The translations under genes were made by a program, and so were the position numbers. A stretch of 55,503 bases of DNA. It comes from an uncultured Gammaproteobacteria bacterium. Lineage in GTDB: Bacteria > Patescibacteriota > Patescibacteriia > Patescibacteriales > WJLG01. Shown one piece after another: positions 3,907 to 55,503 of this stretch (position 1 is the stretch's first letter; the number at the start of each line of letters is the position of its first letter). The notes beneath the pieces are model-generated. The model saw only the letters and a program-made list of their open reading frames with translations. It did no database searches and was not told where the DNA came from. Where the stretch lies: positions 1 through 55,503 of the forward strand of contig CAYNAR010000008.1 in NCBI GenBank assembly GCA_964395625.1, given 5' to 3'.

Positions 3907-6900
3907 ATGGAAGAGATAAAACAAGACAGGGTAATCAATGAGAAGTCGTCCGATCATCTTTATTTGGAGCGTTTGCAATTTAATCCCGAATTACGCAAGA
4001 GCTGGCTTAATTTTTTCATCACTAATTTTCGCGTAGTGATTCTTTTAATCGCCTTGATCACGATCTGGGGTGTCTATTCTTTCGCTAAATTGCCACGTGA
4101 ATCCGATCCAGAAGTTAAGATTCCAATGGCCGTAGTCTCCACCGTCTATCCGGGAGTCTCTCCTGCCGATATGGAGGAACTCGTTACGAAAAAGATCGAG
4201 AAGAAAATCTCTTCTATTAAAGGCATTAAGAAGATAACTTCCAATTCCGGTAATTCTATTTCCAGCATCACCGTCGAATTCGACGCCAAGGAGGATTTGG
4301 AAGGTTCGATCAGAAAGTTGCGCGATCAGGTGAATAGCGTAAAGAACGATTTACCTTCCGACGCCAACGAGCCGATCGTCTCGGAGATCTCTATGAGCGA
4401 TTCCCCGGTTTGGACTATTTCTTTGTCCGGCCCTTATGACGGCTTCACTTTGAAAGAGCATGCCGACGATTTGAAGGACGAATTGGAAAAGATCAACGGC
4501 GTGCGCGAAGTGGCCGTTTCCGGTGGCGACGAGATGGAATTCGAGATTGCTTATGACCCGCAAAAATTATCCTTCTATAATATCACTCCTGATCAGGCTA
4601 ATGGCGCGGTCAAGGCTTTGAATTTGGTATTTCCGGCCGGTAATTTCGAAGGAAAGCAATTCAATTATCCGGTTAAGGCCGATGGTCGTTTTTTCGATGT
4701 GAAGAAATTGCAGGATGTGCCTATATATCATGCCGATAATGGAGCGATAATATATTTGAAAGACGTCGCGACAGTCGGCGAGAGGGCGATCGCGCGTTCG
4801 GAGTATTCTCGTCTGTCGGTTGGCGGATCTCAGCCGGAGAACGCCGTGATAATATCGATGGTCAAAAAGACCGGCGGTTCCATTATTAGTATCGTCGAAG
4901 AGGCCAAAAGTATCGTCGACGAGAAGGTTAAGACCTTTCCGTCCGGCATGCGTTATGAGGTGTCGGTCGATTATGGTAAGGAAATCAATGATAATTTCGA
5001 GAGACTGACTCATGATTTCTTGCTGACTTTAGTGTTGGTCTTCGGAGTTTTATTTTTGATAGTCGGTTTCAAAGAGGCGATAATCGCCGGCATGGCCGTG
5101 CCGTTAGTATTTTTTATAACTTTCGGCGCCCTGTATCAATTCGGTATCAGTTTGAATTTCTTGTCGATGTTCTCTTTGATTCTGTCTTTGGGCCTTTTGG
5201 TCGACGACGCGATAGTCGTGGTGTCGGCCACTAAACAGTATATGAGGACCGGCAAGTTCACTCCTGAGGAGGCGGTGCTTCTAGTTCTTAATGATTTTAA
5301 AGTCGTTTTGACGACGACGACCTTGACCACCGTTTGGGCCTTTTTGCCGTTGCTTTCTTCGTCCGGCATTATGGGTGAATATTTGAAGTCGGTTCCAATA
5401 ACCGTTTCCACTACCTTGATCGCCTCTTTGCTCGTGGCCTTGATGATCAATCATCCTTTGGCTGCCGTTCTAGAGAGATTTCGTCCGACGCGCCAGTGGT
5501 TCTTTGTCGGAATCGTGGTGTCCGTCATCTTAGCTTTATTGCTTTTATTCTCCAATAGCGTCTTAGGTTATGTTTCGGCCGTCGTCTTTATCGCTTTGGC
5601 AATCGTCGGATTGATTTGGTATCGTCGTCGCGGAGGCAAGAGCAAGCTTTTGAGAGGAGAAGAGGCTATGGCTAGAGAATGGGCCGATGACGATTTGATT
5701 AAAAGACGTTTAGGAGGAGAGGACTACGATAGTGGAAATCTTTGGCAGAGATTAACTAATGGTATTGTTCATATCAACGGATTTTTACCGATCTACGAGA
5801 AGTATTTACGCAAGATGATTGATAATAAAAAATCGCGTCGTCGCGCCTTGTTGGCAGTCTTCGGTCTGTTGGTGGGCGCTGTCGCCTTGCCGGTTGTCGG
5901 TATAGTCCCTATGGAATTCTTCCCGGCTTCGGATAGTGACTATGTCTTCATCGACGTCAAAGCCCCTATCGGATCGAAGTTGGAAGAGACCGATAAATTA
6001 TTGGTGCAAGCCGAAGAGAAGTTATTGAAGTATAAAGAGATAAAGACCTATACCACGAACACCGGCGGAGTTTCCGCCTATTCCTACGAGCGCCCTTCAT
6101 CTTATGTCGGCGCGATAACCGTCACTTTGGTCGGCAGTAAAGAGAGGGATGTGAAGTCTTACGATTTAGCCAAGACTATCCGTGAGGATTTGGCCTCTAT
6201 CAAGGGTGGAGACTTCAAGGTCGATACCGCTGCCGGCGGACCACCGTCCGGTTCGGCTTTCGAGGCTAGGATTAGCGGTGACGATTTACAGGTCCTGGAT
6301 AGGATAGCCAGCGAACTGAAAGAAAAATTAGTGGCCATACCGGGCGTCATCAATCCGAACATCTCTTTGAGGGATGCTCCGGCCGACTATACTTTCGTCT
6401 TCGATCCGGCTCGTTTGGAATTATATAATTTGAATGCCGCTACGGTCGGTTCGCAATTACGTTTGGCCATCGCCGGCAACGAGGTGACCACTGTCATCAA
6501 GGACGGCAAGGAAATCAGCGTCAATGCGCGCTTCGACAAGGATCGTTTGCCTACTTTGGAATCGGTCGGTAATCTGCAGGTCAAGAATTTGCTCGGTCAA
6601 TCCGTCTTCTTGAAGGATGTGGCCAAGATAGAATTACGCCCTTCGGTGGAAAGTATCGAGCGCGTCGACCAGAAGAGGGTTGTCCTGCTCTCGGCTAGCG
6701 TGGAAGGAAAGACCAATTCGAATCAGGTGATAGCGCAGTTCAAAAAGGATATCAAGGATTATCAATTCCCAAGCGGCTATACTATTTTCTATGGTGGTGA
6801 GAGCGAGACGAACACCGAATCGGTGATGTCGATCATCCGCGCCATGGGTATCGCCGGACTTCTTATCGTTTCGACATTGGTCATCCAGTTCAATTCTTTC

Positions 6901-47425: not shown

Positions 47426-48184
47426 ATGATTTTCAAGAAAAAAACAAAAATAAAAAAAGATCTTCCGCAACCATTCTCCAAGAATATTATATTTTATGAT
47501 TCGGAATTCTCTTCCTTGAATCCTGAAAAGGGGAATCTTCTGTCCATTGGGATGGTGAAGATGAATGGCGACGAATTGTATTTTGAATTGGAATACGACG
47601 GCGAGGTCGATCCTTGGGTCAAAGAAAATGTCGTACCGCATCTAAAAGGTGAGAAGATTTCGAAAGAAGAGGCTTTGAAGAGGATGAAGAAATTCGCCGG
47701 ATCCAAGACGCCGTTTTTGCTTTCTTACGTAGATAATTACGACGCCGTCTATTTAAAGAAGATAATCGGTCATGACAAGAGGAATATCTTTCATTGGATG
47801 TCGGTCGATATTTCGTCTATGTTTTTCGCCTTGGGTCGCAACCCTGAAGATTTCGGCGATGCCGACAAGAATGGCGAGTTTAAGAGATTGGGTATAGATT
47901 TCAAAAAGTATCGCGAGCATCACGCCTTGGATGACGCTAAGCTTTTGCGAGAGTATTATATTAAAATTTTTAAATTAGGCGTTTATGAACACTATAAAGG
48001 TAAAAGGTATCAGGTTTTGGGCGTGGCTAAACATAGTGAAACATTGGAGGGTTTGGTTGTCTATAAAAAGTTGTACGATGATGGCGGGCTTTGGGTTCGC
48101 CCACTTTCAATGTTTGTCGAAAATGTGGAGGTTGATGGAGTGATTAAGCCAAGATTTAAATATCTTGAAGAGGATGAAGCTTAA
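47426..48184 (+). CDS. DEDDh 3'-5' exonuclease fused to a DUF1653 domain
   Basis: FYDSEF..YD..HHALDDA exonuclease motifs, followed by GVYEHYKG..Y.V..VAKHSET.E..VVY..LY...LWVRP..MF...RF. Confidence 0.8.
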   Translation: MIFKKKTKIKKDLPQPFSKNIIFYDSEFSSLNPEKGNLLSIGMVKMNGDELYFELEYDGEVDPWVKENVVPHLKGEKISKEEALKRMKKFAGSKTPFLLSYVDNYDAVYLKKIIGHDKRNIFHWMSVDISSMFFALGRNPEDFGDADKNGEFKRLGIDFKKYREHHALDDAKLLREYYIKIFKLGVYEHYKGKRYQVLGVAKHSETLEGLVVYKKLYDDGGLWVRPLSMFVENVEVDGVIKPRFKYLEEDEA

Positions 48185-48209: not shown

Positions 48210-48611
48210 ATGTCTAAAATAATTATCGCTTCTGGGCCGGTTATCGTCGATAAAGGCAAGGTCCTTCTTAATAAGCATGGTGACGATAAATTTTGGAAAT
48301 TCTGCGGTGGTCGCGTCGAGGACTTCGATTTCGATTTGCAGGAGACGGCTAAGCGCGAGGCTAAGGAGGAGATGGGAATCGATATCGAAATAACCGACCC
48401 GGAACCATTCCTTTTTCACACTAGAAAAGAAAGAGACGGGCAGAGTATCGATGTTATTCTGGTTCACTATAATGCTAAGATTGTTGGCGAGATAAAACCT
48501 GGTGCGGATATCACGGAGTGGAAGTGGATACCGCTCAAGGATTTGGAGAAAGAGGATTTGGGCCCCAATATCGTGCCGGCCTTGGTGCATTTTTGGTATT
48601 TGGATAAATAA
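48210..48611 (+). CDS. NUDIX hydrolase
   Basis: WKFCGGRVE...QETAKREAKEEMG. Confidence 0.85.
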   Translation: MSKIIIASGPVIVDKGKVLLNKHGDDKFWKFCGGRVEDFDFDLQETAKREAKEEMGIDIEITDPEPFLFHTRKERDGQSIDVILVHYNAKIVGEIKPGADITEWKWIPLKDLEKEDLGPNIVPALVHFWYLDK

Positions 48612-48654
48612 TTGTTCTGCCACTTTTTTAAAAGAGTGGCGTAGATTGTTTTTG

Positions 48655-49059
48655 TGTCATACCGGCGAATGCCGGTATCCAGTTATGCAAGGAGGGAGAA
48701 AATATTTTGTTTATATTTTGGCTAGTAAAAAGAATGGAACTTTGTACATCGGAGTTACTAATAGTTTGTATCGCAGAATACATGAACATAAACAGGGGCT
48801 GGTTGAAGGTTTTACAAAAAAATACAATATTAAGGATTTAGTTTATTATGAAGTTTATGGAAATATTGGAGCGGCGATTTATAGAGAAAAATGCCTTAAG
48901 GAGTGGAAGAGGGAATGGAAAATAAATTTAATAGAAAAAGAAAATAGAGAGTGGGGGGATTTATTTGATACGTTGTTTTGAGGAATGTAGGCGCCGTGTC
49001 ATGTCAGTTTTGAATTTGTAGTTTTACGAAAATGGATCCCGGCCTTCGCCGGGATGACA
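48655..49059 (+). mobile_element. Putative GIY-YIG-encoding palindromic element bounded by 27-bp hairpin inverted repeats
   Basis: Left end TGTCATACCGGCGAATGCCGGTATCCA (48655-48681) and right end TGGATCCCGGCCTTCGCCGGGATGACA (49033-49059) are 24/27 inverted-identical. The interior is about 30% GC in sample rows. Confidence 0.65.
48685..48981 (+). CDS. Small stand-alone GIY-YIG nuclease (98 aa)
   Basis: YFVYILAS..NGTLYIGVTNSL.RRI.EHK..FTKKY..LVYYE..AI.REK.LK.WKR.WKI.LIE. Confidence 0.92.
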   Translation: MQGGRKYFVYILASKKNGTLYIGVTNSLYRRIHEHKQGLVEGFTKKYNIKDLVYYEVYGNIGAAIYREKCLKEWKREWKINLIEKENREWGDLFDTLF

Positions 49060-50505: not shown

Positions 50506-50575
50506 ATAGACTCCTTTTTTGAAAATGAACGGATTTTTATATTTTAAAATATATCATATTTTTTAGTTTTTGTCA

Positions 50576-51559
50576 ATGATTGGGCAAGAATATTTTATAA
50601 AAACTCTCGCTTTTCTGGATATTTTTGATTATCCTCCCACTGCCATGGAAATTTGGCGGTTTTTGGGCGTGAAGGCGGAATTAGGGACAATAATGGAAAG
50701 ATTATTACCAGTGTGTCATACCGGCGAAAGCCGGTATCCAGGTTTAGGGGCTAGTGCTAAGCAAGTGGATCCCGGCCTTCGCCGGGATGACACTGGGGGC
50801 GGTGTTCTAAAAATGATGAATAAAAACGGGTTTTATTTTTTGCCTGGTCGTAAGGAACTGGTCGAAAAAAGAAGGGAATTTTTTCGATTGTCGGAAAGGA
50901 AATTTAAGGTCGCACGCAAGGCTGCAAAAATATTAAGGTTTATCCCGGGATTAAAGATGGCGGCGGTCTGCAATAATTTTTATTACCACGAAGAGTCGGA
51001 TATAGATTTTTTCATCACGACCGACAAGAATCGTCTTTGGACAGTCCGTTTTTGGGCGACCACACTTTTGGATATTTTCCGTTTGCGTGCTCGCGGGAAA
51101 AGGAGAGCCGACAGGATTTGTTTGAGTTTCTATGCTACCTGCGATTGTAATTTGGAAAAAGTGCTTTTGCCTGGTGGCGACCCCTATTTTTATTATTGGT
51201 CGGTCTTTTTTGATCCGGTCTATGACGATGGCGGTGTCGATGCTTTTTGGCAGGCGAACGGTTGGATAAAAAGACATTTTCCAAACTTTTATCCGAATAT
51301 CGGCAATAGGTCGAAAATGGTCGATGACAACTTCCTGTCCTCGGCAGTTAAAAAATCCTTCGGTGTTTTTGTGAATTCTCGGCTAGGTGACTACTTAGAG
51401 AAATTTTTCAAATCTCTGCAGTTTAAAAAAGTGTCCCGTCGTTTTTCCGGTCCGGGAGTAGTGATTTCCGAAGAGATGATAAAAATGCACGAGAATGATC
51501 GACGAGAATATTTTAGAAGCGAATTTGAAAAGAGGTGTGAAAAAATCATTAGTGATTAA
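50576..51559 (+). CDS. Hypothetical protein with a nucleotidyltransferase-like (SDID) motif, carrying an in-frame palindromic insertion
   Basis: FDYPPT..EIW N-terminal part, EESDIDFFITT..RLWTVR and DRICLSF. The insertion encodes about aa 47-73. Confidence 0.75.
   Translation: MIGQEYFIKTLAFLDIFDYPPTAMEIWRFLGVKAELGTIMERLLPVCHTGESRYPGLGASAKQVDPGLRRDDTGGGVLKMMNKNGFYFLPGRKELVEKRREFFRLSERKFKVARKAAKILRFIPGLKMAAVCNNFYYHEESDIDFFITTDKNRLWTVRFWATTLLDIFRLRARGKRRADRICLSFYATCDCNLEKVLLPGGDPYFYYWSVFFDPVYDDGGVDAFWQANGWIKRHFPNFYPNIGNRSKMVDDNFLSSAVKKSFGVFVNSRLGDYLEKFFKSLQFKKVSRRFSGPGVVISEEMIKMHENDRREYFRSEFEKRCEKIISD
50713..50793. repeat. Miniature (non-autonomous) copy of the GIY-YIG element ends, in frame within a CDS
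   Basis: Left end matches 48654-48682 at 28/29. Right end (50766-50792) matches 49033-49059 at 27/27. The spacer is 25 bp. Confidence 0.85.
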
Positions 51560-55232: not shown

Positions 55233-55309
55233 GGGCAATTAGCTCAGTTGGTTAGAGCGCGTCACTGATAATGACGAGGTCAGAGGTTCGAATCCTCTAT
55301 TGCCCACCA
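55233..55309 (+). tRNA. tRNA-Ile(GAT)
   Basis: Full cloverleaf; anticodon arm CGTCA-CTGATAA-TGACG; encoded CCA. Confidence 0.97.
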
Positions 55310-55324
55310 ACGTTTAAAAAGTGT

Positions 55325-55400
55325 AGCGGGGTAGAGCAGTTGGCAGCTCGTCAGGCCCATAACCTGAAGGTCGCTGGTTCGAGTCCAGCCCCCGCAACCA
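55325..55400 (+). tRNA. Initiator-type tRNA-Met(CAT), atypical
   Basis: 76 nt with unpaired 1:72 (A.A), A11:U24, anticodon arm TCAGG-CCCATAA-CCTGA and encoded CCA. Confidence 0.9.
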
Positions 55401-55430
55401 AGATAGTCATTGAAAATTTTGTCGTTATTG

Positions 55431-55503
55431 GCCGAGGTAGCTCAGTGGTAGAGCAAGCGACTGAAAATCGCTGTGTCGTGAGTCCGATTCTCACCCTCGG
55501 CAC
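55431..55503 (+). tRNA. tRNA-Phe(GAA), 3' end cut by the window edge
   Basis: Acceptor stem GCCGAGG/CCTCGGC, anticodon arm AGCGA-CTGAAAA-TCGCT, T-loop TCCGATT. Confidence 0.92.

Follow-up and report, generated by a model that had tools for sequence, protein, structure and literature searches.

What does a gene for a 98-aa nuclease do between two inverted hairpins in the genome of a Patescibacteria (candidate phyla radiation, CPR) bacterium, and do gene and hairpins belong together? The question is raised by a 405-bp unit on contig CAYNAR010000008.1 of assembly GCA_964395625.1, of which positions 1 to 55,503 were analyzed (hereafter the window; these 55.5 kb are the part of the genome covered here). 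Our best explanation, which we consider very probable, is that the unit is an Ssn/SRM module in a CPR genome, in which the gene (ssn) is flanked by two inverted copies of the hairpin recognized by its own product. As judged from sequence, the locus is a Patescibacteria member of a system already published in 2025 (Chenal et al. 2025, Nat Commun, PMC11893778). An earlier note on this DNA had taken the unit for a candidate autonomous element whose nuclease mobilizes or nicks the surrounding repeats; that interpretation is partly supported here and proves largely right in substance, but it was anticipated by the 2025 paper.

The unit is bounded by inverted repeat arms at 48655-48684 and 49030-49059 (30 nt each, 87% complementary, with 345 nt between them). 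On the left lies a 28-nt hairpin repeat in plus orientation (48655..48682; TGTCAT-ACCGGC-GAAT-GCCGGT-ATCCAG), whose 8-bp stem (48659-48666 / 48671-48678) and 4-nt loop, ATACCGGC-GAAT-GCCGGTAT, fold with -8.7 kcal/mol (z=-3.8). Its inverted 28-nt counterpart on the right (49032..49059; TGTCAT-CCCGGC-GAAG-GCCGGG-ATCCAT when read on the minus strand) likewise has an 8-bp stem (49036-49043 / 49048-49055) and a 4-nt loop, ATCCCGGC-CTTC-GCCGGGAT (-9.7 kcal/mol, z=-3.3). None of 200 shuffles matched the folding of either end of the unit alone. The two ends differ by one compensated stem pair (A-T versus C-G) and one loop base, just as had been described. Only 2 nt separate the end of the left hairpin from the ATG of ssn (48685..48981, plus strand), and the list of open reading frames (ORFs) contains no second ORF inside the unit. 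The interior is AT-rich, with 32.8% GC versus 44.3% for the window. No transposase was found in the full unit, and no target-site duplication at it or at a second, gene-less unit described below. Repeat search, Pfam and folding thus bear out the 98-aa GIY-YIG gene in a 405-bp unit with inverted hairpin ends that the earlier note had proposed, along with its AT-rich interior and lack of transposase and target-site duplication.

Neither chance nor assembly explains this arrangement. The pattern CCGGC-N4-GCCGG occurs four times in the window against 0.03 expected, indicating that the hairpins are not accidental; the full 26-nt hairpin consensus also occurs four times, against an expectation of 0. 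The assemblies L001 and L002, made independently of each other, contain the identical locus, which excludes an artefact of assembly. A relaxed search of the 55.5 kb found no hairpin copies beyond these four.

Several features place the enclosed protein in the Ssn family, whose members consist of one GIY-YIG domain and measure about 94 aa (CDD cd10448, GIY-YIG_unchar_3; PMC11893778). Pfam GIY-YIG (PF01541) covers residues 6-81 of 98 (E=7.9e-15). As a reference for protein comparison we used the orthologue of SsnA from N. gonorrhoeae rather than N. meningitidis NMV_0044 itself; the window protein is 54% identical to it over 90 aa (tblastn 2e-25, pairwise blastp 2e-36), well below the E < 1e-10 used to define homology by Chenal et al. 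2025. The gonococcal orthologue is a 94-aa ORF with Y6, Y17 and E64, and the surrounding 3.3 kb hold nine copies of NTS, the Neisseria form of the repeat, arranged as doublets. This locus comes from two 2.17-Mb N. gonorrhoeae chromosomes filed as plasmids in PLSDB (NZ_CP119140.1 and NZ_CP119142.1; L210), with one match each. Mutation of Y6, Y17 and E64 in N. meningitidis SsnA abolishes cutting (PMC11893778). By alignment with the gonococcal protein, these positions correspond to Y10, Y21 and E68 in the window protein. Across 40 aligned Ssn-family members, no variation occurs at these three residues or at R31, H35 and N87; Y10, Y21 and E68 are accordingly the predicted catalytic residues.

An AlphaFold2 model of the protein (pLDDT 90.1, pTM 0.82) depicts a single compact beta-beta-alpha-beta-alpha-alpha GIY-YIG domain. 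The solved folds nearest to it are UPF0213 BH0048 (1ZG2), Slx1 and the UvrC N-terminal domain, and the top PDB folds are all GIY-YIG. Sequence search of the PDB returned weak GIY-YIG matches only (E 0.04-0.13) and no solved Ssn structure, and NCBIfam gave only sub-threshold matches (TIGR01453, 21.4 bits versus a cut-off of 56). By sequence criteria ssn is a functional gene, since its dN/dS is about 0.11 relative to the homologue at locus L005 (range about 0.06-0.17 among comparisons). We also considered a phage-borne gene or a known defense function. The window protein had no match in 50,697 GenBank phage records and three loci in IMG/VR, there was no PADLOC model for it, and one weak PHROG match was of unknown function; these searches lend neither idea support.

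The hairpins point to the same family. All four in the window match the published Ssn-related motif (SRM; HGTCWYN(0-2)YYVSBRHN(0-5)WNVSBRGN(0-2)RNCYNB; Chenal et al. 2025), where 100 dinucleotide shuffles gave 0.14 on expectation and two at most; one match falls on each side of ssn, at 48655-48682 (+) and 49032-49059 (-). The motif is the generalized form of the Neisseria NTS (CGTCATTCCCGCGMAVGCGGGAATCYRG), an oriented subset of dRS3 (PMC11893778). Four Ssn homologues have been tested: they bind the hairpin as single-stranded DNA (ssDNA) only, cleave this DNA a few nucleotides to the 5' side of the hairpin, leave double-stranded DNA (dsDNA), RNA and the reverse strand uncut, and vary among themselves in cut position and specificity (PMC11893778). 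The earlier proposal that the GIY-YIG protein is the cognate enzyme of the hairpins has therefore been demonstrated for these homologues, and the window locus passes the sequence criteria; its assignment to the family rests on the SRM matches, the 54% identity to the SsnA orthologue and the conservation of three residues essential for cutting.

The same repeats were known before their enzyme. CGTC-1 repetitive extragenic palindromes (REPs) are defined by a CGTC (or TGTC) tag, a CCA tail and, between the two, an 8-bp stem that begins with AT and closes on a 4-nt loop; they have been equated with Neisseria dRS3 and Rickettsia palindromic element (RPE) RPE-6 (Di Nocera et al. 2013, PMC3733652). 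Both unit ends fit this description, as TGTC-ATACCGGC-GAAT-GCCGGTAT-CCA and TGTC-ATCCCGGC-GAAG-GCCGGGAT-CCA, so that their early classification with the CGTC REPs, Rickettsia RPEs and Neisseria dRS3 stands. The 2013 survey recorded CGTC-1 in five phyla, CPR not among them; it found CGTC REPs mostly downstream of genes, suggested an RNA-level function for them, identified no enzyme that goes with them, and described inverted dimers with 20-100 bp spacers, including "heterodimers" with unlike stems (PMC3733652). The statement in the earlier note that such repeats have no dedicated enzyme reflects knowledge as of 2013 and has been out of date since 2025, and with that publication the implied novelty of the enzyme-repeat pairing is gone.

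Does the association extend beyond this locus? The Ssn family numbers at least 7996 matching proteins from many phyla, many of them at 65-70% identity. We sampled 80 homologue loci in reference genomes from more than 15 phyla using a strict motif. An SRM lies within 250 bp of the ssn ORF in 49 of these loci, and on both sides in 13, which reproduces the published association independently; with a degenerate motif, published values are 71% with an SRM nearby and 42% on both sides (PMC11893778). SRM density is 1.97/kb beside ssn versus 0.038/kb in distal flanks, a roughly 50-fold difference, and the modal layout among the 80 loci is that of the window, with SRM(+) just 5' of the ATG and SRM(-) 0-35 nt past the stop. 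Searching from the repeats instead, we found exact Neisseria-type inverted hairpin pairs 295-325 nt apart in at least 120 places. Among the 120 pairs listed, 86 (72%) enclose ssn-coding DNA, 79 of them at full length; the other 34, in repeat-rich genomes, lack ssn. The scan for paired NTS listed a Neisseria viridiae locus (L144) whose pair does not enclose the gene. Hairpins with the CCGGC stem of the window occur in at least 120 stretches of other genomes, with ssn within 8 kb in two of the 120 listed. Dispersed hairpins far outnumber ssn genes. Nuclease similarity tracks stem type weakly (66.2% versus 64.1% identity; permutation p about 0.001, uncorrected for phylogeny). We note one homologue (55% identity, SRM(+) 37 nt upstream) on a 4.2-kb contig of a metagenome-assembled genome (MAG) labelled "Halobacteria archaeon" (JABDRC010000072.1; L060), which is either a rare archaeal occurrence or the product of mis-binning.

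The claim that the structure of the repeat rather than its sequence is conserved holds only in part. Among 139 copies of the CCGGC variant, the stem-closing position is a Watson-Crick pair in 130 (T-A 77, C-G 34, A-T 19), so the compensatory change between the window ends exemplifies a general property. Two ssn paralogues within one MAG (L020 and L046), on the other hand, have 56 of 56 hairpin bases identical while their synonymous sites are near saturation (pS 0.70), and we read this to mean that within lineages the hairpin sequence itself is held fixed. Biochemistry agrees, in that altering the stem sequence while keeping the hairpin abolishes Ssn activity (PMC11893778).

Extension of the loop leaves Ssn cutting unblocked (PMC11893778). 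Small GC-rich hairpins (ccccgtatcgcagtacgggg, ccccgtgtcgtgtcacgggg, gcctgcccctgcgcaggcagggg) are nested in SRM loops at L003 (about 733-762), L008 (about 6150-6175), L011 (about 1420-1445 and 1800-1825) and L024 (about 1420-1445), and it seems that SRM loops have repeatedly received insertions of a second repeat family. At L212 (2921-3375; a related Patescibacteria genome), an ssn unit between RmuC and the gene that in the window hosts the mini unit is flanked by GTCAT-tagged hairpins with 35-36 nt loops, which are probably nested insertions as well.

The remaining two hairpins of the window form a second pair of the same types with no gene between them, 1.7 kb downstream of the full unit. This mini unit (50714-50792), overlooked in the earlier note, consists of a left-type hairpin with stem ACCGGC (50714..50741, plus strand), a 23-nt spacer (50742..50764) and a right-type hairpin with stem CCCGGC (50765..50792, minus strand), both found by motif and pattern match. 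As ssDNA the whole doublet can fold into one long hairpin (50705-50800, -29.4 kcal/mol, z=-6.8). Its spacer is identical at about 16 of 24 positions to that of a doublet at L005, in an alignment made by eye and without statistics. The unlike arms of the window doublets (A versus C) and those at L020/L046 (C versus T) raised the idea that left and right arms always differ; this was rejected, because 9 of 14 other doublets of the variant are homodimers.

The mini unit lies inside a gene (50570..51559, plus strand) for a conserved Patescibacteria protein that has 121 homologues and belongs to no Pfam family. The reading frame continues through the doublet (...VCHTGESRYPG...DPGLRRDDT...), which falls in a variable linker that joins two conserved regions of the protein. 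The linker insert is absent in 8 of 17 homologues in the alignment; the syntenic orthologue at L006 lacks the doublet, and that at L008 has a degenerate one. Peptide signatures suggest hairpins in two further insert-bearing orthologues (P0134 and P0124). Could the linker be a specific target? Other lineages carry unrelated palindromes there (CCCCTCTC..GAGAGGGG twice in L211, CCCTCTCC..GGAGAGGG in L307), which argues that it is a permissive site and that the position of the mini unit reflects selection for tolerance rather than targeting.

The full unit probably contains the remnant of a third hairpin, also missed earlier, an identification in which we have moderate confidence. At 48996..49007 (plus strand) the sequence GTGTCATGTCAG resembles an SRM(+) whose stem has been deleted (GTGTCAT-G-TCAG), in the position held by an intact SRM(+) at L005; TGTCAT is found 15 nt past the ssn stop in the window and 17 nt past it at L005. 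Global alignment of the post-stop segment to L005 scores better than 1978 of 2000 shuffles (shuffle p about 0.01), and the spacer that follows (49008-49031) resembles doublet spacers.

Upstream of the unit lies a NUDIX gene (48210-48611) followed by a terminator-like hairpin (48618..48641, plus strand), 13 nt downstream of which the unit begins. This hairpin is also present at L008, which lacks ssn. We found no sigma-70-like promoter between it and ssn, nor are the SRM hairpins followed by a T-run when read in the sense direction; a terminator-like score was obtained for the right hairpin, but on the minus strand. An Rfam search of the window gave no RNA family over the hairpins, its sole matches being three consecutive tRNA genes near the window end (55233-55502; 59-77 bits). 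The gene preceding NUDIX (47426-48184) encodes an RNase T-like exonuclease domain fused to DUF1653, the latter being a separate 70-aa ORF at L008.

What would the enzyme do to the DNA around its gene? When replication, repair or the entry of DNA by transformation or conjugation exposes single strands, Ssn would bind the hairpin on the strand that reads TGTCAT-stem-loop-stem-ATCCA and would hydrolyze that strand about 3 nt 5' of the tag, a distance derived from published oligonucleotide lengths. Each unit carries its hairpins in inverted orientation, tags facing outward, which puts the predicted cuts a short way beyond the unit, one per strand: at about 48651/48652 (+) and 49062/49063 (-) in the full unit, and at about 50710/50711 (+) and 50795/50796 (-) in the mini unit. 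By analogy with the tested homologues, we infer that the window protein cuts at these positions. Such cuts could make the unit and the doublets spread or excise as a selfish module comparable to REP systems with their REP-associated tyrosine transposases (RAYTs) or to insertion sequences, an outcome that we judge plausible, if slightly short of evenly balanced. GIY-YIG enzymes act by hydrolysis and pass through no covalent intermediate with DNA, so movement would need host replication, repair or ligation, unlike that driven by HUH transposases. A stronger version, toward which we are more reserved but which we still regard as a real possibility, is that the hairpin-ssn-hairpin unit (about 0.36-0.41 kb) is an autonomous mobile element, moved by nick-primed copying or repair, and that the doublets are its non-autonomous derivatives.

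Comparisons with relatives indicate that, whichever history is correct, the unit comes and goes as a block, and the Ssn nuclease may be the agent. The closest relatives, L006 (GCA_964547855.1) and L008, are 91-93% identical to the window in NUDIX and 86-91% in RmuC. L006 keeps the gene order of the window (RNase T-like, NUDIX, RmuC, small ORF, the host gene of the mini unit, Wzy_C), with a NUDIX-RmuC gap of only 61 bp, no ssn, and no hairpin in 11.7 kb, while L008 has an unrelated 211-bp NUDIX-RmuC spacer without ssn. Junctions lacking the unit, the occurrence of which in relatives had been raised in the earlier note, are thus present. Minus the unit, the window spacer measures 43+25=68 nt versus 61 nt in L006, and these lengths suggest a clean indel. 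What the paralogues L020 and L046 have in common is confined to 363 bp, which run from the left-hairpin TGTCAT to the right-hairpin ATGACA. Between L011, from an Acetothermia MAG, and L024, from a Dehalococcoidia single-cell genome, only a hairpin-bounded 415 bp is shared, at 90.6% identity (dS about 0.2). Among 160 RmuC-anchored Patescibacteria loci, ssn is nearby in three, each time at a different position. In the repeat-rich genome of Candidatus Rickettsia vulgarisii (CP133317.1), ssn between exact NTS-type pairs (L150 7558-7842 and L179 978-1262) has in-frame stops and is a pseudogene. Block gain and loss, paralogues sharing the unit alone, the 90.6% identical unit across phyla, pseudogenized copies and the excess of hairpins over genes all fit an autonomous element. 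Similarity ends at hairpin edges in 102 of 117 locus pairs, a figure that we discount because the loci were chosen for having those hairpins and come mostly from distant genomes. A larger shared segment occurs downstream of ssn in MAGs assigned to Flavobacteriales and Nitrotoga (L062 1967-3279 and L074 1836-3148; 84.7% identity over 1.3 kb), which suggests that either a longer stretch was transferred or the binning is at fault.

A number of observations weigh against a mobile module. The more distant L005 (NUDIX 78.2% identical) has ssn at the same NUDIX-RmuC junction with 80.6% identity. Given this shared architecture and the similar identities of ssn and NUDIX, loss of an old unit twice is simpler than gain twice; the unit at this junction looks ancient, with vertical descent linking the window and L005, and its polymorphism may reflect two deletions rather than an insertion. 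The AT-rich spacers of the window, L006 and L008 gave no base-level alignment of empty and filled junctions, and no target-site duplication was found at the window units, L020, L046, L011 or L024. The cross-phylum case depends on a 3.8-kb MAG contig (L011) whose phylum assignment may be wrong. Layout varies among singlets, doublets and both orientations: L005 has hairpin, ssn, doublet, whereas in L003 and N. gonorrhoeae ssn sits between two complete doublets, so the 405-bp unit does not qualify as a transposon whose extent and ends are fixed. Strict-motif hairpins are absent from 31 of the 80 homologue loci. With four copies in the 55.5 kb of this genome, a large repeat population is not demonstrated, and the predicted cut positions are carried over from enzymes whose identity to the window protein is only 54%.

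The principal rival is a domesticated host system in which Ssn and its hairpins trim or restrict, at marked places, ssDNA that enters by transformation or conjugation, no hairpin movement is driven by Ssn, and presence or absence of the unit results from ordinary deletion and recombination. Patescibacteria are considered to rely heavily on taking up DNA, which counts in its favor, as do the apparently vertical inheritance of the unit between the window and L005 and the strong purifying selection on ssn. Deleting ssnA in N. meningitidis raises transformation by NTS-bearing DNA about five-fold, an effect that disappears when the NTS is mutated (PMC11893778). Host restriction has no need, however, of paralogues sharing nothing but the unit, of a 90.6% identical unit amid unrelated flanks in genomes assigned to different phyla, of pseudogenized Rickettsia copies, of scattered positions among the 160 RmuC-anchored loci, or of doublets in frame inside genes, all of which are typical of selfish elements. 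The Ssn authors too considered an insertion sequence-like origin (PMC11893778). We therefore regard domestication as the sole explanation as rather unlikely, although a host-level function like the one shown in N. meningitidis, where recombination of incoming ssDNA that bears the hairpins is limited, does not conflict with mobility and may coexist with it.

A second rival reverses the relationship. Here ssn would be a homing-type parasite that copies itself into the spacers of pre-existing doublets by break- or nick-induced recombination, with the hairpins serving as homology arms. The full unit is indeed built like a doublet whose spacer holds a gene, the ACCGGC left and CCCGGC right arms recur in both window units, gene-less doublets occur where relatives have ssn units (as upstream of RmuC at L307), and repeat-rich genomes contain many exact-hairpin pairs that lack ssn (the 34 of 120 listed above). 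Yet ssn lies between two complete doublets, and not inside one, at L003 and in N. gonorrhoeae, and the hairpin-gene-doublet order of L005 fits no better. Homing endonucleases cut dsDNA, which classical homing requires and which the tested Ssn enzymes leave uncut; the window protein also lacks the DNA-binding domains of GIY-YIG homing endonucleases, scoring 21 bits for TIGR01453 against the cut-off of 56. On balance we consider this origin improbable.

The last rival, that the hairpins are ordinary terminators or mRNA-stabilizing REPs with a GIY-YIG gene between them by accident, draws on the mostly downstream location and proposed RNA-level role of CGTC REPs (PMC3733652) and on the terminator-like score of the right hairpin, albeit on the minus strand, but it is scarcely credible and already effectively refuted by the roughly 50-fold enrichment and stereotyped orientation at 80 independent loci, the 72% of listed inverted pairs at the right spacing that enclose ssn, the absence of a sense-direction T-run or Rfam match, and the direct binding and cleavage by homologues for which RNA is not a substrate (PMC11893778).

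Because the enzyme-repeat pairing has been known since 2025, the locus adds chiefly a CPR member to the family. Its value lies in offering a natural test set for Ssn mobility: a full unit and a doublet with the same arm types stand 1.7 kb apart, and relatives provide empty sites for both. One copy is intragenic and in frame, in a family of repeats of which only 2% are intragenic in N. meningitidis (PMC11893778), and the paralogue and cross-phylum pairs mark the edges of the shared blocks at the outer hairpin ends. Should the autonomous-element reading hold, it would explain the spread of CGTC-type REPs, dRS3 and some Rickettsia RPEs, including into reading frames. To our knowledge, the hairpin-ssn-hairpin unit would then rank among the smallest autonomous prokaryotic mobile elements, and we know of no described prokaryotic element that uses a hydrolytic GIY-YIG single-strand nuclease as its mobilizing enzyme. 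The Ssn authors stress the use of these enzymes for site-specific cutting of ssDNA (PMC11893778), and each new Ssn-hairpin pair is a candidate reagent for that purpose.

How, finally, does the unit compare with known systems? With GIY-YIG homing endonucleases of the I-TevI type, as with UPF0213/YhbQ, Slx1 and the UvrC N-terminal domain, the window protein shares the catalytic fold. Sequence similarity to homing endonucleases is weak, and the protein has neither a DNA-binding extension nor an intron or intein context; as a 98-aa single domain with a sub-threshold TIGR01453 score and no match in the phage records, it was rejected as a member of that group. IS200/IS605 elements are closer in design, being minimal, with subterminal hairpins recognized as ssDNA and no target duplication, a comparison also made by the Ssn authors. 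Their TnpA (HUH) cleaves one and the same strand at both ends, which it then joins again, whereas the window hairpins are inverted and the predicted cuts fall on opposite strands; with no HUH protein present, membership of this group was likewise rejected.

The parallel with REPIN-RAYT systems, drawn in the earlier note, is the same one that the Ssn authors raise in their Discussion, where NTS-ssnA-NTS is described as insertion sequence-like and likened to REP-RAYT and IS200-IS605 without being tested (PMC11893778); our literature search found no later paper testing its mobility. The likeness consists of a low-copy nuclease gene flanked by its own hairpins, many dispersed copies that are often inverted doublets able to fold as one hairpin, an ssDNA substrate and no target-site duplication. 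The enzymes differ, Ssn being a hydrolytic GIY-YIG nuclease without a covalent strand-transfer intermediate and RAYT an HUH/Y1 tyrosine transposase, as do the tags ((C/T)GTC in the window, GTAG in REPINs). Inheritance differs as well: ssn has paralogues and shows apparent cross-phylum transfer, while RAYTs are described as single-copy and vertically inherited. Given a GIY-YIG protein and a TGTC/CGTC tag, we rejected REPIN-RAYT membership and retain a likeness of layout alone.

The mini unit invites comparison with Rickettsia palindromic elements, which occur in frame within protein genes (Ogata et al. 2002, as cited in PMC3733652). Like them, it lies in frame in an insertion-tolerant region of a conserved protein whose orthologues exist with and without the insert; unlike them, it resides in a CPR bacterium. 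With the CGTC-1/dRS3/RPE-6 repeats the window hairpins share the TGTC variant of the tag, the AT-starting 8-bp stem, the 4-nt loop, the CCA tail and the inverted heterodimers, but here the repeats bracket their own enzyme gene.

The fullest correspondence is with Ssn/NTS/SRM. The window differs in its CPR host, in a CCGGC rather than the CCCGCG stem of Neisseria, in having single inverted hairpins against the ORF where Neisseria has doublet clusters (nine NTS in 3.3 kb), and in its few copies (four in 55.5 kb), including one doublet that is translated in frame. It shares with that system a single-domain GIY-YIG protein of 94-98 aa with conserved catalytic Tyr, Tyr and Glu, and a 28-nt oriented hairpin, (C/T)GTCAT-stem-loop-stem-ATCC(A/G), present on both sides of the gene and as dispersed copies elsewhere.

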